A stretch of 64,000 nt of DNA. Source: an uncultured Actinomycetes bacterium. Lineage in GTDB: Bacteria; Actinomycetota; Acidimicrobiia; IMCC26256; PALSA-610. Shown piece by piece: positions 1,191-36,787 of the stretch (position 1 is its first letter; every line of letters starts with the position of its first letter). The translations under genes were made by a program, and so were the position numbers. The notes under the pieces were generated by a model. It was given only the letters and a program-made list of their open reading frames with translations. It was not told the origin of the DNA and did not search any database. The stretch covers positions 83,379 to 147,378 of the forward strand of contig CAWJBW010000006.1 of NCBI GenBank assembly GCA_963841215.1, given 5' to 3'.

Positions 1191-1223
1191 CCGTGGTAGC
1201 AAGCGGATATCGAAACCACGCCC

Positions 1224-2687: not shown

Positions 2688-3048
2688 ACGCGAGTACGTC
2701 GCGCCCTGCGACGCACCCGCCGACCCGTTCCCGCAGGGCGATGGCATCGACGGCACACTGCAGCGCATCGCGCTGTCGGCGATCAACGGAGCCGCGTGTG
2801 ATCTGGGGACCGGTCGGGAGGAGCTGATCTTGTCGCTCGAACCCCGCACCGGCTTCGGGCCGGAGGTCACCTGGACCGAGGACACGCTCGAAGAAGCGCT
2901 GCGCGTCGGACTGGTACGCGCGATCGACGACGCCGACGACCGGGACACGATTCCCGGGATCGTTGCGACCGGGCTGAAGGCCGTCGCGAACCGGGCACCC
3001 ATCGACTGGGTCCTCGGCCGCTTCGATATTCCGTTCCTCGAGAACTGA
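2572..3048 (+). CDS. membrane-anchored hypothetical protein, or the frameshifted C-terminal extension of the MFS protein
   Basis: GTG at 2572 is followed by a TM helix (AVALAAGTIVLVGVLIAAEF) and a ~120-aa soluble domain with normal composition. It overlaps the junk-like tail of the MFS ORF. Confidence 0.45.
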   Translation: MTYRVPRSATAVALAAGTIVLVGVLIAAEFRNGARDFGEREYVAPCDAPADPFPQGDGIDGTLQRIALSAINGAACDLGTGREELILSLEPRTGFGPEVTWTEDTLEEALRVGLVRAIDDADDRDTIPGIVATGLKAVANRAPIDWVLGRFDIPFLEN

Positions 3049-3076
3049 ACCGGCTTCGCTGGTCGTAGGCACGGTT

Positions 3077-5365: not shown

Positions 5366-5811
5366 GTGCTCATCGCACCGTCTACACCCGTCTCGTCCGC
5401 ATCCTCCGCGTCCGCTCCCGCCCCGGACGTCGGCGCGCTCGCTCGTCGGTTCTCGCGTACCCCCTCGCGGGTGCCGGCGGGCTGCGCGCGGTTCCGGGAG
5501 GGCGAGGATGGTGTCGCCTCGCCGCCACTGCGGCGTACGACGTCTGGCTGATCGTGTGGGGTACCGGCTCATGTCTCGACCTCCACGACCACGGCGGTTC
5601 GTTCGGCGCGCTGCACGTCGTGCGCGGCGCCCTCATCGAGCAGTACCGCGACCTCGGTGACCCGGCCGGCTTGGTGACCCGACGTCTCGAGGCCGGCGAA
5701 ACGGTCGTCGTGCCCGCGGTCCGCACCCACTCGATCGCGAACCGGGGTGCCGAGGTCGCGAGCGTCCACGTCTACAGCCCACCGCTCCGCCATCTCACGG
5801 GTGGCGACTAG
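5366..5811 (+). CDS. cysteine dioxygenase type I-like cupin protein; frame break near 5530
   Basis: The C-terminal frame reads YDVWLIVWGTGSCLDLHDHGGSFGALHVVRGALIE (cupin His motif). The N-terminal ~55 aa lie in the frame of ORF 5189..5551. Confidence 0.6.
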
Positions 5812-5838
5812 GTTGCGGCCCTTCGATCTGGGGGGATC

Positions 5839-7294
5839 ATGTCGCAGACGTCGAAGTCGACGAAGGTTCGCAAGACGCTGGTGTCGCTCGGGCTGCTGGC
5901 GGTCGTGCCGCTCGTGCTCGCGGCGTGTGAGCGACGCGACATCGGCACCGCCAACCGGGCCGACGATCCGGTGGTGCTCGCCGGGAGCCAGGTCGCCGAC
6001 CTCCAGGGCATCGCCCCGAGCCGGCTGGTCGCGTTCTCGTTCATCTACGGCACGTGGAGTCAGATCCCGGTACAGGTCGACGAGCGCGCGGTGCTCCCCA
6101 TTGCGCGGCCGAAGAATCAGAGCAGTCCGCAGACTGCGCTCTTCTACACCGATGCCAACACGTGGACCGGGGCCGACCCGGACGCGACGTTCGACGCCAA
6201 CGACGAGATCGCGGTGATGTCGCGCGAGCTGTTCGGCGAGGCGCACTCCATCGACGACGACGAGCGGAACGTGCACTACACCCTCGACGAGCCCGACCAT
6301 GTGGTCGCCGGGAGCGGCGTGCAGGTGAAGGTGACCGATCCGCTCGTCGCCAACTCGGGCTCGTGGCTCTACCTGTTCGAGAGCGACGGCACGCTCGACC
6401 CGGCCGCCGGCCGCGATCCGCTGGTCGACTACGACTTCAACCTGCTCTCCGGCAACTACAAGGCCACCTACGTCATCGGTGTCGGGTGCGAATCCCGAGA
6501 ACTCGTCGGTCACGACCAGCCGTTACTCGGCACACTTCTCGGACCGTTGGATCAACGACGAGATCCGCATCACTGCGGGTGGCGCGACCAATGTCGACAT
6601 CCTCGATCGCCAGAAGTCGGGATTCGCCGGTTCGTGCGGCCGCACCGAAGGGACGTTCTCGACCGGCGGCGGCGCGATCATCGCCAACAAGTCGGGGCCG
6701 GTGCGGGCGATCCGTTCGTACCTGGGTGCGAACAGCGGCACGTACACGCAGCGCGACGTCACCATGTACGAGGGCCGCATGGAGGTCACGACCATCCTGC
6801 GCGTGCACCCGATCCCCCCGTTGCGCGACTGGATGGACTACAGCGCCGACGCGATCGGGATGCAGTACCTCACGAGCACACAACCGGCCGGCGTCACGAT
6901 CGACGGTGTTCCCGACTCGATCCCGGCCGGTCTACCCACATGGGAGATGGTGCGCGGCGCTCCTGGCGCGATCGTGCACACGAACGCACTCGTGAGCGAC
7001 ATCCCCGGGATCCAGGGCACTGTGCAGCCGTACTACGTCGACGACTCCACACCGACCGAGAGCCAGTGCACCGGCGACGCGTTCCAGTACGGCGCGAGCG
7101 GCTCGACCGTCGGCCCGCCGCCAGGCCAGACACCATCCCGAACACCGACCCGACCACGGGCGGCGGCGGCATCCTTCCGGTCGACGCGCACGATGACGTT
7201 CCTCGGGCCGACGACGAGCACCGACACCGCCGCGACGATCGGCGCGCAGTCGACCGCGCCGCTCACGAAGACGGTGACGGCGTTCGCACCCTGA
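5839..7294 (+). CDS. secreted lipoprotein of unknown function; about three frame breaks near 6480, 7120 and 7190
   Basis: Signal peptide with lipobox (LLAVVPLVLAAC). Protein-like composition continues from the 5839 frame into the 6479 frame (KATYVIG / ANPENSSVTTSRYSAHFSDRW). Confidence 0.7.
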
Positions 7295-7319
7295 GATCTC
7301 GGGTGTCGCTCGCGCCCGA

Positions 7320-7938
7320 TCAGGCGCGATAGATGTTGACGGTGTCGTCGAGGCCGAGCGTCGCGGCATCGGCGCGCCCGGTGGCAACGAGGACGAATTG
7401 CAGCGGGTCGTCGTCGATGTCGACGGTGAGCGGGCCGAAGTTGCGAAGCTCGAGCTCGCTCACGAGATAGGCGATGCTGGCGTCGAGGCCCGGACCGCGT
7501 TCCGAAGGGCGGCCGAGCGCGGCGCGGATGTCGTCGGCGTGAACGTACGTGTCGTACCAGAGCGTCAGCACACCTCGACCGAGCGTGAGGTCCGGCACGC
7601 CGCTGGGTCCGGCCCAGGCCTCGTCGTCGATCGCGTCCATCAACGCGCGCAACGACCCGGTCGCGGCGCGCAGGCGCTGCGGCGGCAACCGCAGGCGCGT
7701 CGTCGCGCACCGTTGCCGCTTCCTCCGCAGCCGTGCGGCTGCCGGGAACGCCGGCGGCAGTGTCTTCCGCGAGCCCGACGACATGGCCGGCGACGTCGCG
7801 CACGTCGAACCCTTCACATCGGCTCGCGGTGCGCCAATCCTCGTCCGACAGCGAGTCGAGCAGGTCGGCGAACGCGTCGTATTCGGCGATCGCGCCGGCG
7901 CCGACGGTCGTACGGTCGGAAATGTCGGTCGTGATCAT
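7320..7938 (-). CDS. maleylpyruvate isomerase-like mycothiol-dependent enzyme family (TIGR03083/DinB-like); frame break near 7690
   Basis: ATG at 7938 with a GGAG site. N-terminus reads MITTDISDRTT...DEDWRTASRCEGFDVRDVAGHVVG. The C-terminus continues in ORF 7320..7817. Confidence 0.7.
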
Positions 7939-8928: not shown

Positions 8929-11054
8929 ATGCCTGATTCCCGCGACAACGACGACGAATCGCCGCTCGACCGGTTCTTCGAGTGGGCCGAGACGGTGGTC
9001 TATGTGCTCGTCGGCGCCATTCTCATCGGCGGCGCGCTCGTGCTGCTCGTCGAGTCGATCGTCGTCTTCTTCGAAACACTCGACGACGGCGTGGTTGCCG
9101 CCGCCACCGAGACGCTCAGCATCCTTCTCATCGTGTTCATCTTCGTGGAGCTGCTCGGTGCCGTGCGCGTCATCATCCGCGAGCAGCGGCTCATCGCCGA
9201 ACCGTTCCTGCTCGTCGGCATCATCGCCGCGATCAAGGAGATCGTCGTCGTCGCAGGCGCCGAGAGCCCGACGGATGGCGACTTCGCCGAGTTCCGCGAC
9301 GCGATGGTCGAGATCGGCGTGCTCGCCGGCATCGTTCTCCTGCTCGCGATCGCGGCGTTGTTGCTCCGCAAGCGTGAACGCGAACCTTCCGAGGAAACCG
9401 AGCAACCGTCCGCGAGGTCGGGGCCGCGAAAGCTCCGAGCAGTCGTCGTGAGGCTCGAGGACTGGTTCCTCACGCCGGGCGAACGGGGCAACGACGCCAC
9501 GAAGATCGACCGGCGCCGTGGCGACGGTCGATCGTGGACCGAAGGAAACCACGTACGCGTCCTCGTCCACGGTGCCGAGTACTTCACGCGGCTCTACCGC
9601 GAGCTGTGCACGCTCGAGCGTGACGACTGGATCCACTTCACCGACTGGCGGGGCGATCCCGACGAGCTGCTCGCCGGACCCGGAACCCAAGTGGCCAAGG
9701 TGCTCGCCGACTGCGCGCGCAAAGGCGTCCACGTCCGTGGCCTCGTGTGGCGTTCGCATCCCGACGAAGCGCACTTCAGCGAGGAAGAGAACCTGCACCT
9801 CGTGGAGACGATCAACGAAGCCGGCGGCGAGGTGCTCCTCGACGAACGGGTACACCACGCGGGCAGTCATCATCAGAAGCTCTTCGTGCTGCGCCACCCC
9901 GACCACCCGGATGACGACGTCGCCTTCATCGGTGGCATCGACCTCTGCCACGGTCGCAACGACGACGATCGTCACGAGGGCGATCCGCAGGCGATCGAGA
10001 TCGACGATCGTTACGGCGAACGACCCGCGTGGCACGACGTGCAACTCGAAGTTCGCGGGCCGGGCGTCGGTGATCTGGCGTACACGTTCCGCGAGCGCTG
10101 GGAGGATCCGACACCCGTCGACCACCGCAACCCGGTGCGGGCGAGGGTGAACCGCATCGCGCACGAGCCCAAGCGGCCGGACCCGATGCCGCCGATGCCT
10201 CCGGATCCGGCCGCCGTGCGGCACGCACGCGGTGCAGGTCGTGCGGACGTATCCGGCCCGGCGACCGCGCTATCCGTTCGCGCCGGACGGTGAACGCAGC
10301 ATCGCCCGCACGTATCTCAAGGTGCTGCGTCGCGCCGAACGGCTGATCTATCTGGAAGACCAGTACCTCTGGTCCGAGGAAGGGGCCAACGCACTCGTCG
10401 AAGCGCTGCGCCGCGCGCCGCAGCTGCACATCGTGGCGATCGTGCCGCGTCACCCGGATCGGGACGGCCGGTTCAGCGGTCCGCCGTACCGCATCGGGCA
10501 GGACCGGGTGTTCCGGACGGTGAAGGAAGCCGCGCCCGATCGTGTCGCGATCTTCGACATCGAGAATGCGCAGGGGTACCCGATCTACGTGCACGCCAAG
10601 GTCTGCGTGATCGACGACGTGTGGCTGATGGTGGGTTCCGACAACCTCAACCGGCGGTCGTGGACGAACGACTCCGAGCTCTCGTGCGCAGTCATCGATG
10701 CGCAGTTCGACGAGCGCGAGCCGCGCGACCCGGCGGGACTCGGTGACAATGCCCGTGTGCTCGCGCGTGAAACTCGTTTGCGGCTCTGGCGTGAGCACCT
10801 GGGCCGGGCCGACGGCGAGGACGACGATCTCGTCGAGTTCTCCGAGGGCGCGCGCGCCATGGTCGCGTCGGCGCGCACCCTCGACGCCTGGCACGCGAAC
10901 GGCAAGCAGGGCCCACGCCCGAGTGGCGGACTTCGCACCCACGAGCCCGAGCCCGTGCCGGCCCACCACGCGTGGTGGGCATCCGTCATGTACCGCACGC
11001 GCGGTCGACCCGGATGGTCGACCGCTCGCGATGCGGCTGCGCGGCCGCTACTGA
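8929..11054 (+). CDS. PsiE-like membrane domain fused to a phospholipase D superfamily protein (two HKD motifs); frame breaks near 10210 and 10995
   Basis: N-terminal 4-TM PsiE-like region (FIFVELLGAVRVIIREQRLIAEPFLLVGIIAAIKEIVV). HKD 1 is HHQKLFVL...GGIDLCHGRND. HKD 2 is HAKVCVIDDVWLMVGSDNLNRRS. The plausible C-terminal end AVDPDGRPLAMRLRGRY is in ORF 10698..11054. Confidence 0.85.
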
Positions 11055-12779: not shown

Positions 12780-13319
12780 GTGGCCGTCGTGGCGTACCAC
12801 TGCGACGAATGCGACTTCACCTACGACTTGACGTGCGCGCCGGACGCGTCCGCCGAGTGTGTCGCGCGGGCCGGCGACCTCGCCGCGTTGCTCCTGGCCG
12901 AACCGGAGGACGCCGTGCGCCGGAGGCCTCGACCCGAGGTGTGGTCTGCGCTCGAATACGGATGTCACGTCCGGGATGTGCTGCTCGTGCAGCGCGACCG
13001 GGTGCTGTTGGTCCGCCGGGAGGACGATCCGGCGCCCCCGCCGATGGGTCGGGACGAACGAGTCTTTCACGACGGTTACGCCGAGCAGCACCCGGCCGAC
13101 GTCGCTCGCCAGCTCGTCGACGCGGCCTCGCTCTTCGCGCGCGATCTCGATCGGCTCGACCGAGCGTCGTGGCAACGCGGCATCGTCTACAACTATCCGC
13201 CGCCGCCTCGGCGCCGCACCCTCGAGTGGGTGGCCGTACACACCGTCCACGAGCTGCGCCACCACCTGCAGGATGCCCGAGCGTCGGCAACCGGTGAGCG
13301 CGAAAGTACACATGGGTAG
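12780..13319 (+). CDS. DinB-family metal-dependent protein
   Basis: GTG start. WSALEYGCHVRDVLLVQRDRV and HTVHELRHHLQD helices are typical of the DinB superfamily. Intact. Confidence 0.75.
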   Translation: MAVVAYHCDECDFTYDLTCAPDASAECVARAGDLAALLLAEPEDAVRRRPRPEVWSALEYGCHVRDVLLVQRDRVLLVRREDDPAPPPMGRDERVFHDGYAEQHPADVARQLVDAASLFARDLDRLDRASWQRGIVYNYPPPPRRRTLEWVAVHTVHELRHHLQDARASATGERESTHG

Positions 13320-13329
13320 ACCTGCCGCC

Positions 13330-14274
13330 ATGACGCAGCTCCTTCGCGCGCGCGGTATCCGCCAACAGTTCGGCGAACGGGTCGTCCTCGACGGTGTCGA
13401 TCTCGACGTCCCTTCCGGCCGCGTGATCGGGCTGCTCGGACCCAACGGCGCGGGCAAGACGACGTTGATGCGCATCCTCTTCGGCGTCATCGAGCCCGAC
13501 GCGGGCGAAGTGACGTGGGAGGACCGCGCCGCGACGCCGGAGGACCGGCGATCGTGGGGCTACATGCCGCAGGAGCGCGGCCTGTACCCCGACATGCGCG
13601 TCATCGATCTGCTCGTGTGGATCGCGAGGCTGCACGGGCTCGACCGCGCGACGAGCCGCGCCAACTCCGAGCGCTTGCTCGAACAGCTCGGGCTCGGTGA
13701 CCGAGGGCACGACGACGTCAAGGACCTGTCGGGCGGGATGGCCCAGCGCGTGCAGCTCGCGGCGGCGATGGTGCACGAGCCCGATCTGCTCGTGCTCGAC
13801 GAGCCGTTCGCCGGTCTCGATCCGGTGGCGATCGAGTTCTTGTCGAACGTCGTGCGGGAGCACGTCGCCGCCGGACGCAACGTGTTGTTCTCGAGCCATC
13901 AGCTGGATCTCGTCGAGGATCTCTGCGACACGATCACGCTCATCCACCGCGGCGAGGTCGTCCTGCAGGGCGACGTGCGCCAGCTCAAGGCGAACAGCGC
14001 CGAGCGTTACCTGCGGGTGGGAGTGAACGTCGAGCGCGCGTGGCTGTCAGCGTTCGCGGTCGAGATCGCGCGCGCCGACGCGTCCGGGACTCGTGTGCAG
14101 CTGGAGCCCGGAGTCGACGCGGCCGCGGTGCTCGACGCGATTCGTGCGCACGTGCGAGTCGAGGACTTCGCCGTGGAGGCCCCGACCCTGTCGGAGCTGT
14201 TCCTCGCGGCGGCGGGTGAGTCGGTGCACACGGTCGAGGACGAGACGCCGGAGCGCTGGGAGGAGTCGGCATGA
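13330..14274 (+). CDS. ABC-2 type exporter ATP-binding protein (NatA-like)
   Basis: Walker A GPNGAGKTT, Q-loop, signature LSGGMAQRV, Walker B LLVLDEP, H-loop SSHQ. An alternative in-frame ATG lies at 13312. Confidence 0.9.
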   Translation: MTQLLRARGIRQQFGERVVLDGVDLDVPSGRVIGLLGPNGAGKTTLMRILFGVIEPDAGEVTWEDRAATPEDRRSWGYMPQERGLYPDMRVIDLLVWIARLHGLDRATSRANSERLLEQLGLGDRGHDDVKDLSGGMAQRVQLAAAMVHEPDLLVLDEPFAGLDPVAIEFLSNVVREHVAAGRNVLFSSHQLDLVEDLCDTITLIHRGEVVLQGDVRQLKANSAERYLRVGVNVERAWLSAFAVEIARADASGTRVQLEPGVDAAAVLDAIRAHVRVEDFAVEAPTLSELFLAAAGESVHTVEDETPERWEESA

Positions 14275-15418
14275 GCGCGCTCGCGCTGACCGCCGGCGCG
14301 GGAGATCCGCGAGACGATGCGGCACCGGACGTTCTGGATCGTCAATGCCGTGCTGTTCTCGGGCGCGCTCGCGGCGGTGGTCCTTCCGTCGGTCATCAGC
14401 TCGGGGAGCGACACCGACGTGGTCGCGGTGGTCGCCGCGCCGCCGGAGTTTCGCGACGCACTCGAACAGGCACGGTCGGGTGACGATGTGCAGGTCCGCT
14501 TCGTCGACGTCAACGAACGCGCCGCCGCCCGCCGCCAGGTCGACGACGGCGATGCCGACATCGCAGTCATCGGCGGCGAGCCGCCCTCGATCGTGGTTAC
14601 GGCGGGTGAGCACCCGAGCCTCGTCGGGGCCGCGCAACAGGCACTCGCGAGCAGCGAGGTGCAGGCGAACCTGCGCGCCGCGGGACTTTCCGACGACGAA
14701 GCGACGGCGGTGCTCGACGTGCGCGCCGCACCGATCGACGAGCTCGACGAGGACGCGAGCGCGCGTCGGGGCGCGGCCCTGATCGCGGCGACCGTGCTCT
14801 ACGTGCTGCTGTTGACCCTCACCATCTCGGTCGCGAACGGTGTCGCGATCGAGAAAGCGAACCGCATCAGCGAAGTGCTGCTCGCGATCGTGCCGCCGCG
14901 TCCGCTGTTGTTCGGCAAGGTGATCGGCGTCGGGATCATGGGCTTCGCGACCCTGCTGTTCGGTCTGATCCCGATCGCGATGCAGGCTCGTGCTGGGCGG
15001 CGACATGCCGGACGGCATGGCCGGCACGCTCCTGTCGGGCGCGGCGTGGTTCGCGCTCGGCCTCGCCTTCTACCTCGTGATCGGCGGTTCGCTCGCGGCG
15101 CTGGTCGAACGCCAGGAACAAGCCGGCTCCGCGATGTCGCCGCTGATGGCTGCGCTCATCGGATCCTTGCTCGTCTCGCAGAGCGCCCCGGAGACCGGCC
15201 TGGCGACCGTGCTCGCGTACATCCCGTTCAGCTCACCCGTCGTCGAGCCCACCCGCATCGCCGTCGGCGCCTCGTCGCCGCTCGAGATGGCGCTCTCGCT
15301 TTCGATCCTCGTCGTCTCCGTCTTCGTCGCGGTACGTGTCGGCGGCGTCGTGTACCAACGGGCGATCGTCCGCACCGGCCGCCGCCTCAAGCTGCGTGAA
15401 GTGCTCCGCACCGCGTAA
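14271..15418 (+). CDS. ABC-2 type exporter permease (NatB-like); frame breaks near 14295 and 14985
   Basis: ATG at 14271 overlaps the ATPase stop (ATGA). The AREIRETMRHRTFWIV N-terminal motif is in the next frame. The C-terminal helices are in ORF 14990..15418. Confidence 0.8.
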
Positions 15419-15480
15419 CGCCGGCAGCCGAGGAAACTTGGTGTGGACCGAGGACGCCGGTACCATGGAATCTCCACCGA

Positions 15481-15554
<74 letters not shown>

Positions 15555-15572
15555 CTACAAGAACCGCAGGTC

Positions 15573-15600
15573 AGGGCCGGTCTCTCGGGACCGGCCCTTT
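15573..15600 (+). terminator. stem-loop after the tRNA (10-bp stem AGGGCCGGTC/GACCGGCCCT followed by TTT)
   Basis: Perfect inverted repeat 15573-15582 / 15589-15598 with a 6-nt loop, followed by TTT. Confidence 0.5.
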
Positions 15601-15677
15601 GCGCGACCGGGCCGACTTTCTAGCTCTAGAGCTCCGCAGACAGCTGATCAGCAACCCGGCCTACATTCCTGTTTCGG

Positions 15678-18537
15678 ATGCAGGATCTCTTTGTTGGGCG
15701 GGGCCAGGAGCTCGGACTGCTGCAGGACGCGGGAACCGCGGCGGCGGGCGGGCGCGGCGGGTTGGTGCTGCTCGGCGGCGAACCGGGCATGGGCGAGTCG
15801 CGCCTCGCTGACGAGAACGCGACGCCGCGTCGCGTCTGAGGGAGCGCTGGTCGCGTGGGGTCGCTGCTGGGAGCTGGGTGGCGCGCCCGCCTACTGGCCG
15901 TGGACCGCGGCATTGCGCGATGTGATTGCGCAACGGTCTGCGGCCGGCGCGGACGAGCTGGGCCAACTGCTTCCCGAACTCCAGCAGCCTGCAGTGGAGT
16001 CCGCCTCGGAGCACGCAGAGTCCGCCCGCTTCCGCTTGTTCGAAGCGGTCGTGCAGTTCCTGCGCCTGACGTCGACCGAACATCCGGTCGTGGTCGTGCT
16101 CGAGGATCTTCACGCCGCCGACGAACCCTCGCTCCTGCTGTTGCAATACGTCGCGCGCGCCGCCGTGGGTCTGCGTGTTCTCTTTGTCGCGACGTATCGC
16201 GATATCGAGCTCGGCGCCGGCAGCGCGTTCACGACCGCCATGTCGGAGCTGATGCGCGAACGCGTGACGACTCGGATCGTTCTCACCGGACTCGGCACGC
16301 GCGACGTCGGCGAGATGATCGCGGCAGCGACGGGCGTGGCCGCGGCGGAGCATGTGATCGAGCGCGTGTGCTCACATACCGAAGGCAACCCGCTCTACGT
16401 CCGTGAGATCGCACGCTTGCTCACGACCGATGGTCGCTTGCCCGAGGTCGGCGACCGGCTCGCGGTGCCGCGCGACGTTCGTGAGATCGTGCTCGGCCGG
16501 ACCCGGCGACTGCCCGACGAATGTGGCGCGGTCTTGACCCTTGCGGCCGTGATGGGTCGCGATTTCCCGTTGGACCTGATGACCTACATGCGCGGCGCGG
16601 ACGTCGTCGAGCGGCTCGAGCCCGCGATCCAAGCCGGTCTCATCATCTCGGGCACGCCGGGTGAATTGCGATTCTCGCATGCCGTCGTTTCCGAGGCGCT
16701 GTACGACGCGACGCCACCGGCGCAGCGCATGCAGCTGCACTACGAGATCGCCGAGACGATGGAGAAGCACCACGTGGCGATCGCCGCGCACCGGGCATCC
16801 ATCGCGCACCACTACTTGTTGGCGTTGCCGCTCGCGCCGGCGGAGAAGGCGGTGGATGCTGCACGCGAGGCAGCACGGGCCGCCGTGGCGCGGCTGGCCT
16901 ACGAGGAAGGTGCGCGCTTGTACCGCAGCGCGATCGAGGCGTCGCGTGCACTCGATGACGAGCGTGTCTATGTCGAGTTGCTGCTCGCGCTCGGCGACGC
17001 ACTCAGCCGGGCTGGTGCCACCGAAGACTCGAAGTCGGCATTCCTCGAGGCGAGCGACCGATTACGGACATTGGACGAGCCGGAACTCTTCGGGCAGGCC
17101 GCGTTGGGATATGGCGGGTCCTTCGTGTGGTTGCGCGCCGGTGACGACACGCGGATCGTGCCGCTGCTTCACGAGGCGATAGACCGGCTCCCGGACACCG
17201 ACAGCCCGCTGCGCGTGCGGTTGCTCGCGCGACTTTCAGGTGCGATGCGCGACGACGTCTCCAAGGCCACGCGGGATGTGCTCAGTCGCGAAGCGGTCGA
17301 AGCGGCGCAGCGTATGAACGACGCGAACTTGCTCGCATACGTGCTCCCCGGACGCTGGTGCGCGATCTGGGGACCGGACCGCGCCGACGAACTTCGCGAG
17401 CTCGCGGCGGCGGCGATCGAGAACGCGGAGCGCTGTCGTGAGCGCGACCGCCTAGGCGACGCGCTGATGGTCAGTGTGCTCACGCACCTGATGCTCGGCG
17501 ACATGGACCACGCGCGCCAGGCGATCGCCGGCTATGTCGATATCGGCGAGGAGCTGAGCCGGCCGTCGATCCAGTGGTACGGAACGGTCATGAGCGGTGT
17601 GCTGCTGCTCTCCGATGGTCGTCTTTCACAAGCGGAGGAGACCATCGAGTTGGCGCGGCGCCTCGGCCGGGACGTGGAGGCGTGGGATTGCGAGGTCTCG
17701 TACCGACTCGCGGTGACGATGCTGCGGTGGGAGCAGGGCCGCCTCGGCGAAGTCGAAGACCTCGTGCGCGAGGCGACGACACGGTTCCCCGGATATCGCG
17801 TGTTCTGATGCATGTATGCGTTGTGCCACCTCGAAGCGGGCCGTTCGACCGAAGCGACGGCACTCGTGCACGAGATCCTGGTGGCCGGCGAGGAAGCACT
17901 GCCGTACAACAACGACTGGCTCGCAGGGATGACATTGCTCGCCGAGGTCGCGTACCGCTTGTCGCTGACCGCGGTTGCATCGTCGATGTACGAGCTGATG
18001 CGACCGTTCAGTCATCTCGTCGGCAACGCGGGCGGCGAGCCCTTCACGGGCTCGATGCACCGACCGCTCGCCCAGATGGCGACCTTGCAAGGCGATCTCG
18101 AACGTGCTCGTGAGCATCACGAGCATGCCCTCGAGGTGCACACGCGCATGCGCAGCGAGCTGTGGATCGCGGACAGCGAGTTCGATCTCGCCGAGGTGCT
18201 GCGGGCGCAGAACGGCCCCGATGATCCGCAGCGCGCCGGGCACCTGTACGCGCGGGCGCTGCACCGGTGTGAGACGTTGGGCATGGCCGCACTGGCCGCG
18301 CGCATCCGCGCCGTGACCTCTCACAACCACGCGCCGAGGGAACGCCCGGGCGGGCTGACCAAGCGCGAGCTCGAGGTGGCCGCCTTGGTGGCGGCCGGCG
18401 CGTCGAACCGGGACATCGCCGACGAACTCGTGATCTCGGAACGCACTGCCGAGAGCCACGTGCAGAACATCCTCACGAAGCTGGGCTTCGGCTCCCGGGC
18501 CCAGATCGTGTCGTGGTACGTAGGCGTACAGCACTGA
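15678..18537 (+). CDS. LAL-type (large ATP-binding LuxR family) regulator: AAA/STAND ATPase, TPR-like repeats, C-terminal LuxR HTH; disrupted in this sequence
   Basis: ATG at 15678 (a 53-codon ORF absent from the track) gives FVGRGQELGLL...LLGGEPGMGESRLADE. Continuity into ORF 15691..17808 (GRCWELGGAPAYWPW, VVVLEDLHAADEPS) needs a frame change near 15805-15835. An in-frame TGA lies at 17806-17808. ORF 17812..18537 ends with LTKRELEVAALVAAGASNRDIADELVISERTAESHVQNILTKLG. Confidence 0.85.
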
Positions 18538-18539
18538 GA

Positions 18540-18560
18540 AGTTCCGTACCGAGTTCCGTA
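18540..18560 (+). promoter_or_regulatory. direct repeat AGTTCCGTA x2 (12-nt period) between the LAL gene and the repeat-peptide gene
   Basis: AGTTCCGTA at 18540-18548 and at 18552-18560. A TTGACC hexamer lies at 18577-18582. The region is AT-richer than its surroundings. Confidence 0.3.
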
Positions 18561-18631
18561 GTCCCCCGGATGTGCGTTGACCTGCATTTTCGTACGTTCA
18601 TCTCGTTCGATTCCCAAGAAGGAGCAACGAG

Positions 18632-18940
18632 ATGACCGCAACGATGCAGCGCCCCGAGATCCGGATCGAAGACCCGGCCCCCACGCCCAAGCGCCGCCGC
18701 ACCGGCCGCGTCCTGCTCGCGGCAAGCGTGTTCGTGCTCGCCGGCGCCACGGTCGCGGTGGTCGGGTCGAACGACCCGTCGTCGAGCGACCCCGCCCCGA
18801 CCGCGGACGTTTCGCAGGACCCGCTCGTCACGCGCTTCGGTGCGAATGACGCGACCGATGCTTCGCAGGACCCGCTCGTCACCCGCTTCGGTGAGTCCCC
18901 GGCGAACCAGGACCCGCTCGTCACCCGCTTCGGCAGCTGA
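18632..18940 (+). CDS. small exported or membrane-anchored protein (102 aa) with three C-terminal QDPLVTRFG repeats; candidate multi-copy peptide precursor
   Basis: AAGGAG at 18619-18624, 7 nt before the ATG. N-terminal KRRRTGR precedes a hydrophobic segment VLLAASVFVLAGATVAVVG. Then SQDPLVTRFG...SQDPLVTRFG...NQDPLVTRFGS-stop. Confidence 0.65.
   Translation: MTATMQRPEIRIEDPAPTPKRRRTGRVLLAASVFVLAGATVAVVGSNDPSSSDPAPTADVSQDPLVTRFGANDATDASQDPLVTRFGESPANQDPLVTRFGS
18812..18933 (+). repeat. three near-identical 26-31 nt DNA repeats encoding the QDPLVTRFG units
   Basis: CAGGACCCGCTCGTCAC(G/C)CGCTTCGG(T/C) starts at 18815, 18866 and 18908. The only differences within the core are synonymous (ACG/ACC Thr, GGT/GGC Gly). 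The spacers differ. Confidence 0.9.
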
Positions 18941-19412
18941 ACCAGCCTCGGCAGTCACTCGCCACTGACCTCCCAACGCCTCTAGCTCGGGTGCTGCGAC
19001 GGGCGCGAGCCGTGGCGCGGCGACGCGCGCGAGCGCTCCCGCAGGACGAGGTCGTTGAGTATGCGTCTGACCGTTGGTATGTCGATCATGAGTGACGTCG
19101 CTCTGCCGCCGGTCTCGTCGGCGAGGATGAAGCCAGCGGTCTCCATCGCTTGACCGGCTCGTAAACCCGGGTGGGAGCTGGGGTGCCTGGATGACAGAGC
19201 CCGGCCCCTCCGGCTCGGGCGAACCGAACGTAGATGCGCGCATTGGTGTCCTTTCGTTGCGACCACTTGGTCGTTGGGGTGTGTGACTCCAAGGCTGAGC
19301 GCAAGCGGGATGACGTCGCGCCGGTAGAAGTCCCTGGTCGGTCCCTGGTCGACGTGGTGGTCGAGCGAGGCCCCGTGCGTGGCCAGGCGACGGAGAGGAG
19401 GTAGCGAGCTGA

Positions 19413-19430
19413 AAGATTCGAAAGAATCTT
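19413..19430. other. hairpin/palindrome AAGATTC-GAAA-GAATCTT in a low-GC stretch upstream of the YciI-sigma operon
   Basis: 7-bp perfect inverted repeat with a GAAA loop. Lies 86 nt upstream of the YciI-like start codon. Confidence 0.4.
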
Positions 19431-19515
19431 GTCTTGGCTGTCGAAACGGGCGGGGCAGCACGACGTCATGGCGTACGGCGACGAGGTCGTACACCAAGCG
19501 CCTGAGGAGGCCCCG

Positions 19516-19872
19516 ATGAAGTACATGCTGCTGCTCCGCCACGCTCCCGACGCCGGTCCGGCCGAGGGCACCCCCGAGTTCGACGCCGAGATGGCGAAGT
19601 GGGGCGAGCTCATGGGCGAGCTCGGCGGCTCCGGCGCGATGATCGCCGCCCACGGCCTCGACACCGAGGCCACCGCCACCACCGTCCGCGTCCGTGACGA
19701 CGAGCCGCTGATCACCGACGGCCCCTTCGCCGAGACCAAGGAGTCGTTCTTCAGCTACATCATCATCGACGTCGCTGACCTCGACGCCGCGCTCGGCTGG
19801 GCCAAGCGGATGCCGAACGTGACCTACGGATCCGTCGAGGTCCGCCCCCTGTCGAGCCACGAGCAGGACTGA
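19516..19872 (+). CDS. YciI-like (YCII/DGPF domain) protein
   Basis: GAGGAGG lies 5 nt before the ATG at 19516. MKYMLLLRH...ITDGPFAETKESFFSYIIIDVADLDAAL is typical of YCII. Confidence 0.85.
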   Translation: MKYMLLLRHAPDAGPAEGTPEFDAEMAKWGELMGELGGSGAMIAAHGLDTEATATTVRVRDDEPLITDGPFAETKESFFSYIIIDVADLDAALGWAKRMPNVTYGSVEVRPLSSHEQD

Positions 19873-19876
19873 GCGC

Positions 19877-21178
19877 TTGGCGCACGAGGCGGCCGCACGG
19901 GTCGCTGCCCACCAGGCGATCGAGCAGGCGTACCGCGAGGAGTGGACCTCGCTCCTCGCCACGCTCGCCGGCCAGGTGGGCGGCGACATCGGCCTCGCGG
20001 AGGAAGCCGTCGCCGATGCCTTCGCCGCGGCGGCCGCGGAGTGGCCCGAGCGTGGCGTGCCGAGCCGGCCCGGCGGGTGGCTGACCACCGTCGCCCGGCG
20101 ACGGGCGATCGACCGCCTTCGCCGGGACCGCACCCGCGTTGCGAACCTCGCCGCCCTCGACCACTTGGAGCAGCTCGTGCGCGACGAGAACGACACCCCG
20201 ACCAGCGACGACCGTGGCCACGACCGCAGCGCCATCGCCGACGATCGGCTGCGGCTGCTGTTCACCTGCTGCCACCCCGCGCTCGCGCTCGACGCTCGCG
20301 TCGCGCTCACGTTGCGCGCGGTGGGCGGGCTCGAGGTCGCCGCGGTCGCTCGCGGCTTCTTGACCACCGAGGCGACCATGTACCAGCGACTCGTGCGCGC
20401 CAAGCGCAAGGTGAAGGCCGCCGGCATCCCCTACCGCGTGCCCGCCGACGACGAGCTGCCCGAGCGGCTCGGCGGCGTGCTCCACGTCGTGCACCTCGTC
20501 TACACCGAGGGCCACGTGGCCACCGACGGTGACGCGCTGATCCGCGCCGAGCTGTGCGACGAGGCGATCCGGCTCGCTCGGCTCGTGGTCGAGCTGCTGC
20601 CGAGCGCGGCGGAGGCCCACGGGCTGCTCGCCCTGCTGCTGCTCACCGATGCTCGGCGCCCGGCGCGCACCGACGCCGACGGCCTGCCCATCAGCCTCGA
20701 GGACCAGGACCGCGCTCGCTGGGACCGCGCCGCCATCACCGAGGGCATTGCGGTGCTCGACCACGCGCTCACGCTTCAGCAGCCGGGCCCGTTCCAGGTG
20801 CAGGCGGCGGTAGCCGCGCTCCACGCCGAGGCGGCGACGTGGGACACCACCGACTGGACGCAGATCGCCGCGCTCTACGGCGAGCTCGAGCGGATCGCAC
20901 CGTCACCGGTCGTGACGATCAACCGCGCCGCGGCGATCACGTTCGCCGACGGGCCTCACGTCGGGCTCGCCGTGCTCGCGGGGCTCGACGACGACGGACG
21001 TCTCGATCGCTACCAGCCGCTGCACGCCACCCGCGCCGAGCTGCTGGCCCGAGCCGGCGACCTCGAGGGCGCGGCCGCTGCCTACCGGCGCGCGATCGAC
21101 CTCAGCCAGAACCCCGCCGAGCAGCGCGCGCTCGAAGCGCGTGCCGCACGGTGGGGCTGCTCACCGCTCGAGCGTTGA
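19877..21178 (+). CDS. ECF-type RNA polymerase sigma factor with a long C-terminal TPR-like extension (the kind usually paired with YciI)
   Basis: Sigma2 region (GWLTTVARRRAIDRLRRD) and sigma4 region (RVALTLRAVGGLEVAAVARGFLTTEATMYQRLVRAKRKV), followed by a ~230-aa extension. Intact. TTG start as given in the track. Confidence 0.85.
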   Translation: MAHEAAARVAAHQAIEQAYREEWTSLLATLAGQVGGDIGLAEEAVADAFAAAAAEWPERGVPSRPGGWLTTVARRRAIDRLRRDRTRVANLAALDHLEQLVRDENDTPTSDDRGHDRSAIADDRLRLLFTCCHPALALDARVALTLRAVGGLEVAAVARGFLTTEATMYQRLVRAKRKVKAAGIPYRVPADDELPERLGGVLHVVHLVYTEGHVATDGDALIRAELCDEAIRLARLVVELLPSAAEAHGLLALLLLTDARRPARTDADGLPISLEDQDRARWDRAAITEGIAVLDHALTLQQPGPFQVQAAVAALHAEAATWDTTDWTQIAALYGELERIAPSPVVTINRAAAITFADGPHVGLAVLAGLDDDGRLDRYQPLHATRAELLARAGDLEGAAAAYRRAIDLSQNPAEQRALEARAARWGCSPLER

Positions 21179-21192
21179 CGCGAGCAGCTTGG

Positions 21193-24038
21193 TCATGGCT
21201 GCACCCGCACCAGGGCCTGCTCGACACTCGTGACGTTGACGGCGCTGCCGCCCGCCACGATCTTGCCGTCGGGTTGGAGGGCGACGGTCGCGCCGGAGTC
21301 GAAGCCACCGTGGAAGTCGACGGTGAGCGTGCCGCCGTCGCCGAAGCTCGGGTCGAGGCTGCCGTCAGGAGTCGTAGCGGGCCATCGCCAGATCGGCACC
21401 ATTGACGGTCCCAGCGGTGCCGACGACGACGATCTTGCCGTCGGGCTGGAGGGCGAGGTCGTGGGCGATCGTCCGAACCGAATCCGTCGCGACGAAGTCG
21501 GCCGTGGTGACGCCGTCGCCGTCGAAGGTCGAGTCTGGGTCGCCATTGGGCAGGAAGCGCCAGGCGGCCACCTGGCTGTCGAAGCCGACTCGGAAGCTGC
21601 CGGCGACGACGATCCTGCCTTCGGCATCGATGGCGACGCCTTCGGCGGTGCCCGGGTCGAAGTCGGTGATGCCGGCGCCCGCGAAGGTCGAGTCCAGCAC
21701 GCCGGCGGGCGTGTACCGCAGGACGCTGAAGTGGTCGAGGCCGCTGTCGTCGGACACCCGGGCGGTGACAACGATGTTGCCGTCGGCGTCGAGGGTGACG
21801 TCGGTGGCGACGTCGAGCTCGCCGCCGACGGCGCGAATCGGTGGTGACGTACCCGGTGCCGCCGGTGCCGAAGCTGGGGTCGGGAATGCCGGCAGTGTCG
21901 TAGCGGAGCACGGCGACGTCGACGCCGTTGGCCTCGCCGGCCACGACGATCTTGCCGTCGGCTGGAGGGCCACGCCGTAGGCGCAGTCGCGGCTCCCACC
22001 GAAGTCGGTGGTGGCGGTCCCTTGGTCACCGAAGCCGAGGTCGAGGTTGCCGTCGGCGTCGTAGCGCTGCATGGCGACGTCCTCGTCGTTGAGATCCACC
22101 GGTCCGCTGACGAGGCCGACCACGACGATCCTGCCGTCGGGCTGGAGGGCGAGGTCGTTGGCGTCGCTGGGGAAGCAGCTGTCGGCGTCGATGGCCGTCG
22201 CCACGATGCCGCCGACGCCGAACGTCTCGTCGAGGGTGCCGTCGGGGTCGTAGCGGGCCAGCGCGTTGTCGCTGGACGGCGACGATCTTGCCGTCGGGCT
22301 GCACGGCGACGCCGAGGGCGGCTTCCAGGTCGGGCGTGGTGACCTGGCCGCCGTCGCCGAAGCTCGGGTCGAGGCTCGGCGTCGGGCGGCGGGGTGACGC
22401 AGGCGACGGCGATGTCGGTGATGTCGGCCTCGGCGACGGTGCCGGAACCGTTGGTGACGGTGCAGATCTGCCCGGCTCGGATGGCTGGGCGTCGACGGTG
22501 ACGTCGTAGTTGTCGCCTTCGAGCTGCGGTGTTGGTGAACTCGAACGGCCCGTTGGCGGGGGTGATCTCCTCGAAGTTGTTCTTCAGAACCAGCCCGGTG
22601 CCCTCGAGCCCGGTGACGGTGCCGCCGATCGTGAACTCGGGGTCGGGCTCGTCGTCGACGATCGTCAGCACGGTGCTGGACGGGCGCCGAGGGTCGTGCA
22701 GCTCGGCTCGGACAGGGCCAGGTTGACGGTCTTGTCGTCCTCCGCGATCGCGTCCTTCAGGATCTCGACCGGGACGGCTCGGCGACGTGGTGTCGCCGTC
22801 GCCGAACCTGATGGTGCTGCTCAGCGGGCTGTAGTCGGTGCCGGCGACTGCGGTGCCGTCGCTGGTGGCCACCGTGGCGCTCACCTCGCCGGCGCTGCCG
22901 CCCGTGCGGGTGACGAAGACCTGCGGCGCGGCGCCCTCCCATTCGCCGATCGCCGAGGCGGCGGTGCTGAACTGCAGCGTGCCGGCCGCGGGATCCGGGC
23001 CCGCCGTCACACTCCACCGGGCGCAATCGGCGCCGGCGCGGGCGGCTCGGTGAGCGGGTCGGGCACGCGGGTGAGGCCGGTCGTCTGCAGCTGCGGGGCG
23101 CCGCCCACCTCCAGCGGATCGCGCAGGTAGGCGAACACGGTCGAACCCAGCCGGTCGTCACCGTTGGCCAGCCGGCGGTCGTAGCGTCCTGGCGAACGTG
23201 TTGACCTCGAGGGTGAACTCCTCACCCACGGGAACCGAGGAGATGTCCACCTCGGACGTCAGGATGAACTCGTTGTCGAGAATGGCGAATGAACCCGGGA
23301 TGCCGTCCGGGTCCGCATTCGGGTCGAAATCGAAGTCGGTTTCGTCCCAAAGGATGTCGGTTGTGTACGGGTCGACGTAGATCTCGGGGAGAAAGCTGTC
23401 GACGAAGCCGGTCATCTTCGCGGCTCCCGACGCGCGGTAGAAGAGCTGCTGCTGTTCGGGTGGCACGTTCGGTGAGGTAGGCCGCGACGGTCGAGCGAGA
23501 CCTCGCCCTCCATCGTGAACTGGCAGGTCGTGTCTCGCCCTCGGGCACTCGTCGGGACGGGCGGGCGGGCATCAAGCTCTCGTCGACCGCCACGATCTCG
23601 GCGGCGGTCACCGTGTAGTGCAGCGTGGCGTCGTCGGAGTCCTTGCGGAAGTTCTGGAACTGGGTGAGTTCGGCCTTGTTCCCGACCTCGCGAGTGGGGT
23701 CTGCGGCATCGAAGAGGTTGTTGCCGGGGCTCTGCACCTCCACGCCGTAGGTCACCCCGCTCGGGTTGGAGAAGATCCGCCCGATGTTGAGCCCGTCATT
23801 CGGCTCCCGGTCGAAGAGGCTGTCCGGAAACCGTTGATGGAAGTTCAGCCGCCCACCGTCCCGGATGATCGGCTCGTCAAAGATCTCGGTTCCGTCAGCG
23901 AGGTAGCGGGAGAACTGCGCGATCCGGAACGGCTGGAACGGCTTGAGCCGCGGTTCGGGCGGTGGTTCCTGGGCCGCGGCCGGCGCCATGCAGGGCGAGA
24001 ACGCCGATCAGACCGCAGACGAGAGCTCTGACTTTCAT
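21193..24038 (-). CDS. giant secreted protein: signal peptide, N-terminal domain, Calx-beta domain and delta-60-type repeats; many frame breaks
   Basis: ATG at 24038 with GGAG. Signal peptide MKVRALVCGLIGVLAL. Calx-beta-like GTLQFSTAASAIGEWEGAAPQVFVTRTGGSAGEVSATVATSDGTAVAGTDYS. Recurrent LQPDGKIVVVG / ARYDxDGxLDxSFGxGG units are spread over all three minus-strand frames. Confidence 0.75.
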
Positions 24039-36021: not shown

Positions 36022-36787
36022 ATGCCGTACCCGGCGCCCACGGAGCAGGACGTCGACTTCTTCGAGACGCACGGTTGGATCGCGATCGCAGACGCGGTGG
36101 ATCCCGATGACCTCGCGACGCTCGAGCACCGGTGCGAGGTGATCCTCGAGAAGAAGGAGATCGATGGCCTTCGACTGGGCGTGGGAGGAGGGGACGCCGA
36201 GAGACGAGCGCGCGTTCAAGATCCTGCAGTCGAGCCCGACGTTGTTCTTTCCGGAGTTGAACCGCGAGCGCTTCCGCTCCTGGGCGGTCGAGTTCGCGTC
36301 GACATTGATGAGGCGACCGCTCGAGTTCTGGTACGACCAGTTCCTCGCCAAACCGCCCGGCGCGAGCGTGCCCACGCGCTGGCACCAGGACGAGGGCTAC
36401 TGGGGTCGCAACCTCGAAGAGCGCGGCATCACGTGCTGGATGCCGATGCACGACGTCGACGAGACGAACGGGTGCATGCAGTTCATCGACGGCGGACACA
36501 AGGACGGCGTGATCGAGCACCGGCTCGTACCCGGGGTGCAGAGCGACCTTCTCTACTGCGAACCCGACGAAGCGCGCCGTGTCGTGTGCCCGCTCCGCAA
36601 GGGCGGCGTCACGTTCCACCACAGCAAGACGCCGCACATGACGAACGCGAACACCTCGTCGACGTGGCGGCGCGCGCTCACCCAACACCTGCGGGTCGTC
36701 GGCAGCGAGGGCGAGGGCGACCACTACCCGTGGAAGATCTACGTCAACCAGTTCAGCGGTCAACGGACCACACCGCCGACCCGTTGA
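36022..36787 (+). CDS. PhyH family Fe(II)/2-oxoglutarate oxygenase, copy 3; frame break near 36160
   Basis: AAGGAGG precedes the ATG at 36022. VDFFETHGWIAI in the first frame continues as RWHQDEGYW, FIDGGHKDG and FHHSKTPHMTNAN in ORF 36164..36787. Confidence 0.75.

Follow-up and report, generated by a model that had tools for sequence, protein, structure and literature searches.

Small DPLVTRFG repeat proteins encoded beside STAND regulators: a putative AfsR-AfsS-like module in Acidimicrobiia and relatives

In actinobacteria, STAND/NLR-type regulators such as AfsR, the LAL proteins and MalT rank as major switches for physiology and antibiotic production. The signals that activate them are stated to be mostly unknown (bioRxiv 10.64898/2026.09.02.748808). 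In Streptomyces, afsS lies just downstream of afsR, and its promoter is conserved and directly activated by AfsR (PMC10832544; bioRxiv 10.64898/2026.09.02.748808). The AfsS proteins are 17-38% identical between species and always carry two to five short repeats, which are needed to bind AfsR and to enhance its DNA binding (PMC10832544; bioRxiv 10.64898/2026.09.02.748808). The repeats themselves differ by species, e.g., TxxDNHMPxxPA versus NTHITD (PMC10832544). Here, we describe two neighbouring genes, a LAL/STAND regulator gene and a small gene for a repeat protein, which are located in a stretch of 64,000 nucleotides (nt) from an uncultured bacterium of the Acidimicrobiia (contig CAWJBW010000006.1, positions 83,379 to 147,378; the whole stretch is called the window in the following). 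Judged by its organisation, the closest known analogue of this module is AfsR-AfsS, where AfsS is likened by gene layout and the pattern of conservation and not by sequence comparison. The best-supported reading, drawn from this analogy, is that the module represents a portable regulator/target pair of the AfsR-AfsS kind whose repeat protein would be exported. Related loci carry L numbers and related proteins P numbers.

The small gene is an open reading frame (ORF) whose ATG follows the TGA of the regulator gene (18535-18537) after a spacer of 94 nt (Table 1). Its G+C contents at the three codon positions (GC1/GC2/GC3 = 0.67/0.55/0.85) are those of bona fide genes of this window, which has about 69% G+C. 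The protein starts with MTATMQRPEIRIEDPAPTPKRRRTGR, continues with the hydrophobic segment VLLAASVFVLAGATVAVVG and the linker SNDPSSSDPAPTADVS, and ends with the repeats, which read QDPLVTRFG-ANDATDAS-QDPLVTRFG-ESPAN-QDPLVTRFG-S. A basic KRRRTGR precedes the 19-residue hydrophobic segment and an acidic Ser/Pro linker follows it, the net charge being +3 before and -3 after the segment. This arrangement predicts an N-in/C-out topology with the basic N-terminus in the cytoplasm and the repeats outside of it, and the hydrophobic segment would be either a cleaved signal peptide or a membrane anchor. AlphaFold2, supplied with the family alignment, models a transmembrane (TM) helix at residues 21-45 and no globular fold, the mean predicted local distance difference test score (pLDDT) of the whole model being 60. 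Short helices of low confidence are placed over each PLVTRF, and the model as a whole fits the view that the DPLVTRFG units are a short linear motif, not a folded domain.

A first reading of the letters alone, in the following called the original prediction, had described an ORF of 102 codons with an AAGGAG, a 7-nt spacer, an ATG and a 94-nt gap to the regulator, and every one of these details agrees with the sequence. It had further described a basic KRRRTGR N-terminus with a single hydrophobic segment, which hydropathy and charge bear out, and three copies of QDPLVTRFG with the last one ending one residue before the stop, which are present exactly as described.

Table 1. Positions of the features discussed in the text, counted from the first letter of the window.
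Feature	Position	Strand	Description	Basis
tRNA-Met (CAT)	15481-15555	+	Rfam RF00005, 65 bits	ARAGORN; Rfam
Two-gene module	15630-18940	+	sole similarity of the window to the 20-kb loci L009 and L010	blastn
LAL/STAND regulator gene, disrupted twice	15678-18537	+	952 codons if repaired	Pfam domains
Extra C in a CC run, frameshift	15825-15826	+	gap in all four relatives L007-L010
In-frame TGA in the regulator gene	17806-17808	+		sequence; alignment with L007-L010
Direct repeat AGTTCCGTA-CCG-AGTTCCGTA	18540-18560	+	9-nt units, 12-nt period	repeat search
TTGACC, -35-like hexamer	18578-18583	+	invariant in five loci
Inverted repeat	18595-18607 / 18626-18638	+	13-nt arms, 18-nt loop	repeat search; RNA folding
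Shine-Dalgarno AAGGAG	18619-18624	+	7-nt spacer to ATG	sequence
Small ORF	18632-18940	+	ATG 18632, TGA 18938-18940, 102 amino acids
Hydrophobic segment VLLAASVFVLAGATVAVVG	18710-18766	+	residues 27-45; Kyte-Doolittle mean 2.43
QDPLVTRFG, copy 1	18815-18841	+	exact match in sequence
QDPLVTRFG, copy 2	18866-18892	+	exact match in sequence
QDPLVTRFG, copy 3	18908-18934	+	exact; followed by one Ser and the stop

A word-indexed search with the small protein matched 20 proteins, and when 1.84 billion representatives were searched exhaustively with a profile, 80 matched at E<=1e-3, 33 of them at E<=1e-10. Since motif and architecture recur in approximately 80 database representatives, the small ORF is real, far beyond chance. 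Family members have a length of 48-175 amino acids (aa), mostly 70-136 aa, a few large repeat proteins excepted. Their common layout begins with M-[AST]-[AT]-T-[IV] and continues with a basic stretch, a single hydrophobic segment (Kyte-Doolittle mean of about 2.2-2.6), an acidic Ser/Pro linker ('DDSS.PAP') and the motif. In nearly all of them, a net positive charge ahead of the hydrophobic segment contrasts with a net negative one behind it, which predicts for the family either the N-in/C-out topology or a cleavable signal with V-V-A at its end. One copy of the motif is found in 32 members, two in 28 and three in 16; nine members show only degenerate copies and are thus without motif under the strict pattern. 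In about half of the small proteins the last motif is situated 1-2 residues from the C-terminus, while alternative C-termini consist of tails such as 'QPLLRLSGPR' or 'LxLYGGRR'. Distant members have an overall identity of 30-57% and keep the motif. Hence the protein sequence of the small ORF is conserved, with a copy number that varies over a fixed core (approximately 80 representatives; one to three copies), both of which the original prediction had held to be telling; homologues with the repeats inside a larger protein, which would have spoken against it, did not occur with this N-terminus.

The small proteins appear to form an undescribed family, with neither a Pfam or NCBIfam model nor a literature match. 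No Pfam family matched the small protein. NCBIfam gave sub-threshold matches of four members to CU044_5270 (E 2e-5 to 2e-3, region of N-terminus and TM segment) and of two of these four also to an anti-sigma factor model (E of about 1e-3); with 18-25 bits against a cut-off of 100, over no more than the basic stretch, the TM segment and the linker, the scores place the members neither with the anti-sigma factors nor with CU044_5270. Searches with the small protein against PADLOC and PHROGs gave nothing informative, a sequence search of the PDB gave signal-peptide-like noise only (E>=0.09), and the best tblastn match among the plasmids of PLSDB had E = 0.1. The motif strings were unmatched in a full-text literature search, and a keyword search for literature on STAND, LuxR and signalling peptides in Actinobacteria gave general reviews only. 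In their sources, family members are unnamed or called 'hypothetical protein'. As the family is unannotated, its definition would improve the annotation of many metagenome-assembled genomes (MAGs). A degenerate two-copy DNA pattern was matched by one species-representative genome (L008, an Acidimicrobiia MAG) and three JGI metagenome contigs, and with so few matches the taxonomic range is thinly sampled.

Some proteins of a different kind were also collected by the profile. P0041, P0048 and P0092 are large STAND proteins with many TPR-like repeats of 42 aa, each repeat containing '(Y)D-D/E-L-V/I-x-R-F-G', and they match down to E 1e-11. A relation of DPLVTRFG to such a STAND TPR-repeat segment, e.g., mimicry of a repeat helix, was considered and is indistinguishable from chance. 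P0075 (624 aa), with about 14 tandem 'QQPLWSARFGREANDGK' units, resembles a eukaryotic RFamide-type neuropeptide precursor, and its match to the profile via the RFG units is most likely due to convergence or chance.

Over 148 instances, the sequence logo of the motif reads D-P-L-[V/I]-[T/V/I]-R-[F/Y]-G. D, L and G are each found in 143-147 of the 148, P and R being fixed by the search pattern, and the residues at -1 and +1 are variable. In 29 instances from 14 loci the third codon positions vary and the amino acids are constant, with synonymous codons such as CTC/CTG/TTG, GTC/GTG, ACC/ACG/ACA/ACT and GGT/GGC/GGA. Summed over pairs, the close clade (window, L008-L010) has ten synonymous and no non-synonymous differences in its motif codons, and the pN/pS ratio is about 0.48 in the linkers and about 0.57 in the N-terminus/TM part. 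The small protein of L007 is 54% identical to that of the window (L008 clade), versus 78% for the regulators of L007 and L008, which leaves all of the small protein free to drift but its motif, its TM character and its outermost N-terminus. As judged from this codon pattern, selection acts on the motif at the peptide level.

The context of the small gene was readable in six lineages. In the window and in L007, L008, L009 and L010 (lineage a), a LAL regulator with the architecture AAA_16-TPR-GerE is located directly upstream on the same strand, such that the synteny in relatives which the original prediction had suggested is found in L007-L010. The distant relatives L001-L006, L011, L012 and L017 have other types of STAND genes adjoining the small gene. 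In L011, L012 and L017 (lineage b), it is an AAA_16-TPR STAND with a non-GerE C-terminus, again directly upstream and on the same strand, and its sensor is a homologue of that of the LAL (33% identity over 570 aa, E = 2e-61). L002-L004 (lineage c) show a MalT-like NTPase of 999 aa with a C-terminal BTAD directly upstream, which has no BLASTP similarity to the LAL (E>0.1). In L001 (lineage d), a SARP(Trans_reg_C-BTAD)-nSTAND1 gene is divergent at a distance of 153 nt, and in L005 and L006 (lineage e) a large BTAD/Pkinase/nSTAND1...WD40 gene is directly upstream. In lineage f, the 'YGGRR' subfamily (P0015, P0096, P0098), no STAND gene adjoins the small gene, which is found beside a divergent phosphoesterase, cupins, or NosD/PfkB. 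A STAND regulator is thus the immediate neighbour in five of the six lineages and belongs to three non-homologous STAND classes. In four of the five STAND-linked lineages the gene is directly upstream on the same strand, and the distances are 78-153 nt. STAND genes make up roughly 1% of all genes or fewer by estimate, and therefore an adjacency by chance is very unlikely. We conclude that the regulator/small-repeat-protein module is real, and that the STAND link of the small gene is not obligatory.

Two observations on the STAND genes of other loci may be added here. The C-terminal region of about 150 aa of the L011, L012 and L017 STAND proteins carries the conserved pattern FRREG..W.I.Y.G...R...KGL.Y.A.LL ... 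TVRTGY.CRY.PDP..ITW; the region has no Pfam match and may form an output or DNA-binding domain not described so far. In L013, the region downstream of the small gene contains a gene of about 1340 aa (980-5008, - strand) for a SARP/BTAD-NTPase-TPR-adenylate cyclase protein, and also a gene for a LAL-like TPR protein (5636-7609, - strand), from which it follows that such regulators cluster locally.

The neighbourhoods bear directly on two readings that come to mind for a repeat peptide next to an NLR-type protein. The multi-copy core with variable spacers resembles, as a lead only, the multi-core precursors of ribosomally synthesized and post-translationally modified peptides (RiPPs), and an NLR with an adjacent small protein likewise resembles the amyloid signalling pairs of bacteria (BASS/HET-s-like). 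Neither a YcaO, a rSAM protein, a P450, a lanthipeptide synthetase nor any other modifying enzyme is a conserved neighbour, and only the STAND gene recurs. This is in line with the earlier statement that no modifying enzyme or dedicated exporter is adjacent: no enzyme recurs in 11 neighbourhoods, and no exporter is linked. A six-frame search of the window and L001-L013 found motif instances in the small ORFs only, so the STAND proteins are without the matching motif copy that an amyloid partner would have, and an 8-residue motif with Asp, Pro and Arg is unlike amyloid motifs. The RiPP precursor and the amyloid-templating partner fail their defining tests, i.e., the tailoring enzyme and the matching STAND motif, and we consider them extremely unlikely.

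The region between the two genes is conserved as well. Its 94 nt are nearly invariant among the window, L008, L009 and L010, and a block of 131 nt, reaching from the end of the LAL gene to the first codons of the small ORF, has a mean column identity of 86% over five loci including L007, whose spacer is near that of the window despite the 54% identity of the small proteins. Directly behind the regulator gene, the direct repeat of Table 1, identical in L008-L010 and partly kept in L007, is a candidate binding site of the regulator. The hexamer TTGACC, which stands without a standard -10, would suit a promoter that depends on an activator. Upstream of the small gene, the LAL-linked loci (18565-18600 in the window) and the wHTH-linked L011, L012 and L017 share a promoter block (G/C)(A/G)TGTG(A/C)..., which in the latter three takes the form of GTGA-N9-TCAC-like inverted repeats and hints at a common operator across lineages.

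Further downstream, the 3' arm of the inverted repeat includes the ATG of the small ORF, and its loop holds the Shine-Dalgarno sequence. The hairpin folds as RNA with -22.4 kcal/mol in the window (z = -4.1 versus shuffled sequences) and reaches z = -3.7 in L007, which has a better stem owing to two substitutions. RNAalifold gives a consensus hairpin with minimal evidence of covariation. In the leaders of other lineages, an upstream CCUCC-like stretch pairs with the Shine-Dalgarno sequence (z = -3.2 in L005, -2.3 in L011 and -2.1 in L002), and the leader folds of L012 and L017 are not significant. Positions 18595-18638 may therefore represent an RNA element that pairs the ATG or, alternatively, a DNA operator. 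Should the mRNA begin downstream of TTGACC, it would lack the 5' arm, and the element would act on read-through transcripts only, or as a DNA operator.

In comparison with its relatives, the module behaves as a unit. Identity of the module block to the window amounts to 92.7% in L009, 86.9% in L010, 92.9% in L008 and 74.8% in L007 (blastn). The shared block begins 48 nt 5' of the LAL start and closes with the small ORF's stop codon, and on both sides of it the DNA differs from that of L009 and L010. Since homology is confined to this interval, the two genes have moved together. A convergent PAC2-family gene follows the pair in L007, L008 and L010, and a peptidase_M20 gene precedes it in L009 and L010; in the window, the module is flanked by the tRNA-Met gene and a YCII/ECF-sigma pair (ECF, extracytoplasmic function). 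The tRNA gene ends about 75 nt before the left edge of the shared block and is hence context or boundary, not part of the module. An Rfam scan of 15300-19600 found nothing besides this tRNA. Attachment sites of a genomic island were considered and rejected, as no tRNA-derived direct repeat flanks the module.

These data also allow a judgement on a further explanation, namely that there is no functional link at all and that the small gene encodes an autonomous envelope or secreted protein, which came to lie beside regulators through regulator-rich islands or the shared ancestry of a few loci. The varied neighbours of the STAND-less subfamily (phosphoesterase, cupins, NosD, PfkB), the locally dense region of L013 with its several STAND genes, and the small number of independent contexts (about eight lineages) would agree with it. 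It does not account well for three non-homologous STAND classes as immediate neighbours in five of six lineages, for the sharing of just the two genes between the window and L009 and L010, or for the conservation of the intergenic region even in L007. We regard it as very unlikely.

The regulator of the window has an AAA_16 NTPase, a TPR-like sensor and a C-terminal GerE/LuxR helix-turn-helix (HTH) according to Pfam. The GerE match (7.8e-18) scores 64 bits against a cut-off of 23.5. TPR_12 is matched with 3.5e-7 and is likewise found in the orthologues, L007 showing TPR_19 in addition. AAA_16 is split between two reading frames, positions 2-43 being found in the frame of 15678 (3.5e-7) and positions 43-159 in the frame of 15691 (6.1e-13). 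A Walker-type NTPase, a helical-repeat sensor and a LuxR/GerE HTH are therefore all present, as in regulators of the LAL/MalT type; a single intact ORF is not. Of the regulator of about 950 aa with AAA, TPR and LuxR parts that had been described earlier, the domains are supported by Pfam, and the intact ORF gives way to a frameshift and a TGA. The frame from ATG 15678 ends at 15837-15839, and the remainder of AAA_16 is encoded in the +1 frame. At the second lesion, a C-to-T change, the window has TGA where L008 and L009 have CGA, L010 has CGT and L007 has CGC (Arg in each case), the L008 protein reading ...YRVFRCMNAL... across the site. Both lesions are unique to the window among the five aligned loci (window, L007-L010). 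The orthologues are intact in L007 (956 aa) and in L008 (at least 924 aa) and 78% identical to each other; in L010, a related long-read assembly, the alignment shows about 30 indels in the LAL gene. The lesions could be real, i.e., belong to a decaying copy, or could be assembly errors.

An observation upstream bears on the question whether assembly indels are errors. The ABC-2 permease gene at 14317-15418 (+), which follows a DrrA-like ABC ATPase gene (13297-14271), is seemingly split into the frames 14317-15399 and 14990-15418, with a suspected frameshift near 14990-15020 (read by eye; the Pfam analysis covered its first part). Programmed readthrough or recoding of the regulator TGA was considered and is unsupported; an apparent in-frame stop at 36785 turned out to be two adjacent genes in the same frame. 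In L012, a JGI metagenome contig, the STAND gene (372-3635, - strand) is interrupted as well (…DTLYE*LPAAV…) and represents a second disrupted STAND partner beside an intact small gene. This gene is broken by TAG, a codon other than the TGA of the window.

Taking these results together, we suggest, with a probability of roughly 45%, that the small gene is under positive control of the regulator and that the octapeptide units, once exported, have their target in a partner which is conserved across these bacteria. According to this model, the ATP-switched STAND regulator would sense a cue and bind the conserved intergenic region, likely at the direct repeats of 18540-18560, and the bound regulator would turn on the small gene's own promoter. 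The small protein would then insert with N-in/C-out topology, or be secreted after cleavage of the signal peptide, and would in this way present one to three D-P-L-V-T-R-F-G copies outside the cytoplasm. The octapeptide would be the functional unit, i.e., the binding or effector part, and it would act on a conserved partner rather than on a lineage-specific receptor.

Several points weigh against this model. The 'YGGRR' subfamily, having no adjacent STAND, implies that a regulator next to the gene is dispensable for the function of the small protein. The binding sites of LuxR-type HTH proteins are usually inverted and not direct repeats, and it is their conservation from which binding of the regulator to the direct repeats is deduced. 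A consensus scan gave no sigma-70-type site on the + strand and no consensus -10 at standard spacing from TTGACC. The topology of the small protein is read from hydropathy and charge only, and nothing near the module hints at an extracellular partner. AfsS, on which the analogy is built, is cytosolic with species-variable repeats, unlike this family. Finally, the regulator of the window has a frameshift and a stop codon, and if these lesions are real, the module does not work as proposed in the window itself.

The original prediction put forward, as a possibility, a cassette of the RRNPP kind. In such a cassette, the small protein would be a multi-copy propeptide exported via Sec, from which extracellular proteases release (Q)DPLVTRF(G); after re-import, the peptide would dock to the sensor (TPR or WD40) of the STAND regulator next to it and switch this regulator on or off. 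The export-type N-terminus and the position of the motif at the extreme C-terminus, 1-2 residues from the stop in about half of the family, are in agreement with this idea, and so is the combination of one to three copies, a fixed core and variable linkers, which is known from multi-copy peptide precursors; the match of the RFamide-type multi-copy precursor P0075 to the family profile points in the same direction. TPR and WD40 sensors are peptide-binding folds, the AfsS repeats that bind AfsR give a precedent for the binding of a repeat to a STAND protein, and an Asp-Pro start would be expected from general peptide chemistry to resist aminopeptidases. Private receptor/peptide pairs of RRNPP systems, however, normally co-diversify. 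The octapeptide is essentially invariant across sensors of 33% identity and across non-homologous STAND classes, including the WD40 type, and this weakens the reading as a private pheromone. Moreover, the 'YGGRR' subfamily has the motif without an adjacent STAND, the variable residues at -1 and +1 leave no conserved processing sites around the motif, none of the loci examined has a linked gene for a protease, an exporter or Opp, no member with RRNPP architecture is present according to Pfam, and the regulator of the window is disrupted. With its invariant octapeptide, its STAND-less subfamily, a disrupted regulator and no linked exporter, protease or permease, the locus does not support the receptor/propeptide model, which we consider unlikely.

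A broader version would be a new type of peptide-based cell-cell or alarm signalling in Acidimicrobiia and relatives, in which the STAND regulator both controls, and is controlled by, the exported multi-copy precursor of a universal (Q)DPLVTRF(G), the latter serving as a 'public' signal for several unrelated classes of STAND sensors. We consider this version rather improbable.

The conserved N-terminal tail of the family and its weak NCBIfam matches suggest yet another role, in which the small protein is a membrane tether or co-sensor: a single-pass partner would hold or release the STAND regulator via its cytoplasmic N-terminus, and the external DPLVTRFG would sense an envelope cue or be clipped by an extracellular protease. 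In favour of it, the M-x-T-T-I/V-(D/E) start is conserved across subfamilies, a single-pass N-in/C-out topology is predicted, and weak, consistent sub-threshold matches exist to CU044_5270 (four members) and the anti-sigma model (two). MalT and MalK are a precedent for the sequestration of a STAND regulator at the membrane, with anti-sigma factors as an analogous case. The matches, however, have 18-25 bits against a cut-off of 100 and cover mostly the TM segment and low-complexity sequence, and the cytoplasmic tail comprises about 15-35 residues only. We looked for co-variation of the tail with the STAND class and found none: the tail of P0009, a neighbour of a SARP-nSTAND1 gene, resembles that of the LAL-linked clade, and the STAND-less subfamily shares the start MSATITLD with the STAND-linked L012. 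The varying copy number of the motif is also left unexplained, and we doubt that the protein acts as a tether.

Between the small ORF and the YCII gene, about 490 nt (18941-19428) contain no ORF with the coding GC3 signature of the window, and a minus-strand ORF fragment of 72 aa (18982-19200) has no Pfam match. Synteny with the relatives breaks in this interval, where they have the convergent PAC2-family gene. The region 19429-21178 (+) encodes a YCII-domain protein, followed by an ECF-type sigma factor with DUF6596 and a TPR tail; this pairing is common and has no evident link to the module. On the minus strand, 21193-23010 encodes a large protein that looks secreted and contains repeats of the Calx-beta and DUF5122 beta-propeller types. 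Stop-free stretches overlap around it in several frames, so that this gene may also carry frame errors. In L009, just after the small ORF (10310-10420), there is an extra segment of about 100 nt with a long palindrome (ACACATTCGACACATCAGATGTGTCGAATGTGT), which is absent from L008 and L010 and may be a small inserted element or a terminator.

From a biological point of view, the motif of this small, recurrent partner protein, with its eight residues unchanged in the close clade beside freely evolving linkers, is among the most sharply conserved short motifs, and the protein would be a concrete handle on what STAND regulators control or sense. If the peptide is released, the module would add peptide signals to a phylum whose quorum sensing is regarded as relying on small molecules such as butyrolactones. 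If it is not released, the AfsR-AfsS principle would be extended beyond Streptomyces, beyond SARP-type regulators and across the membrane. In case the reading as a public peptide is true, bacteria would have a first example of a pheromone that is a ribosomal, unmodified peptide and is tied to receptors of the NLR type.

Among the known systems, eukaryotic RFamide precursors have a signal peptide, tandem peptides ending in R-F-G, and acidic spacers (P0075: about 14 'PLWSARFG' units), which is similar to the family described here. In RFamide precursors, the peptides have basic cleavage flanks and the Gly is the amidation donor, whereas neither basic flanks nor an amidating enzyme are evident here. 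Single-pass anti-sigma factors and CU044_5270 proteins (NF038083, NF052375) share the short cytoplasmic N-terminus, the single TM segment and an acidic/Pro-rich juxtamembrane stretch. Unlike them, the small proteins have no anti-sigma domain, their partner is a STAND and not an ECF sigma factor, and the extracytoplasmic part is a peptide repeat and not a domain.

With the LAL/MalT regulators, the regulator of the window has in common the AAA_16 NTPase, the TPR-like sensor and the GerE HTH; unlike the intact members of this group, the copy of the window is disrupted. The boxes bound by MalT are asymmetric and form repeats, and MalK, which is associated with the membrane, keeps MalT inactive. 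The known LAL inducers are small molecules such as maltotriose, and a LAL with a dedicated downstream repeat-peptide gene is not known to us, nor did our literature search give an example. The RRNPP systems of Firmicutes (Rap/NprR/PlcR/PrgX/AimR) resemble the module in a TPR-type regulator that is followed by a small ORF with export signal and C-terminal peptide, where export is a prediction in our case. Their receptors are HTH-TPR or phosphatase-TPR proteins without an NTPase, in contrast to the AAA_16-TPR-LuxR STAND NTPase of the window, and the host of the latter belongs to the Actinomycetota. Furthermore, the precursor described here is multi-copy, its peptide does not diversify with the receptor, and no linkage to Opp or protease genes was seen.

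AfsR-AfsS agrees with the module in several respects. A small gene (<200 aa) is located directly downstream of a STAND regulator on the same strand (L002-L012, L017 and the window; divergent in L001), and overall conservation of its product is poor save for short repeats, with two to five copies in AfsS and one to three here. The upstream region is conserved and contains repeats, the binding and activation by the regulator being transferred by analogy. There are differences as well. AfsS has no membrane segment and is cytoplasmic, whereas the hydrophobic segment of our family predicts repeats on the outside. The repeats of AfsS are species-variable; DPLVTRFG is invariant across lineages and bears no resemblance to the reported AfsS repeats. 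AfsR has an N-terminal SARP followed by NB-ARC and TPR, while the regulator of the window is an AAA_16-TPR-GerE LAL, and STANDs of the SARP/BTAD type occur only in the other lineages. In summary, neither the family of small proteins nor its link to STAND regulators appears to have been described, and their organisational principle has a precedent in AfsR-AfsS.

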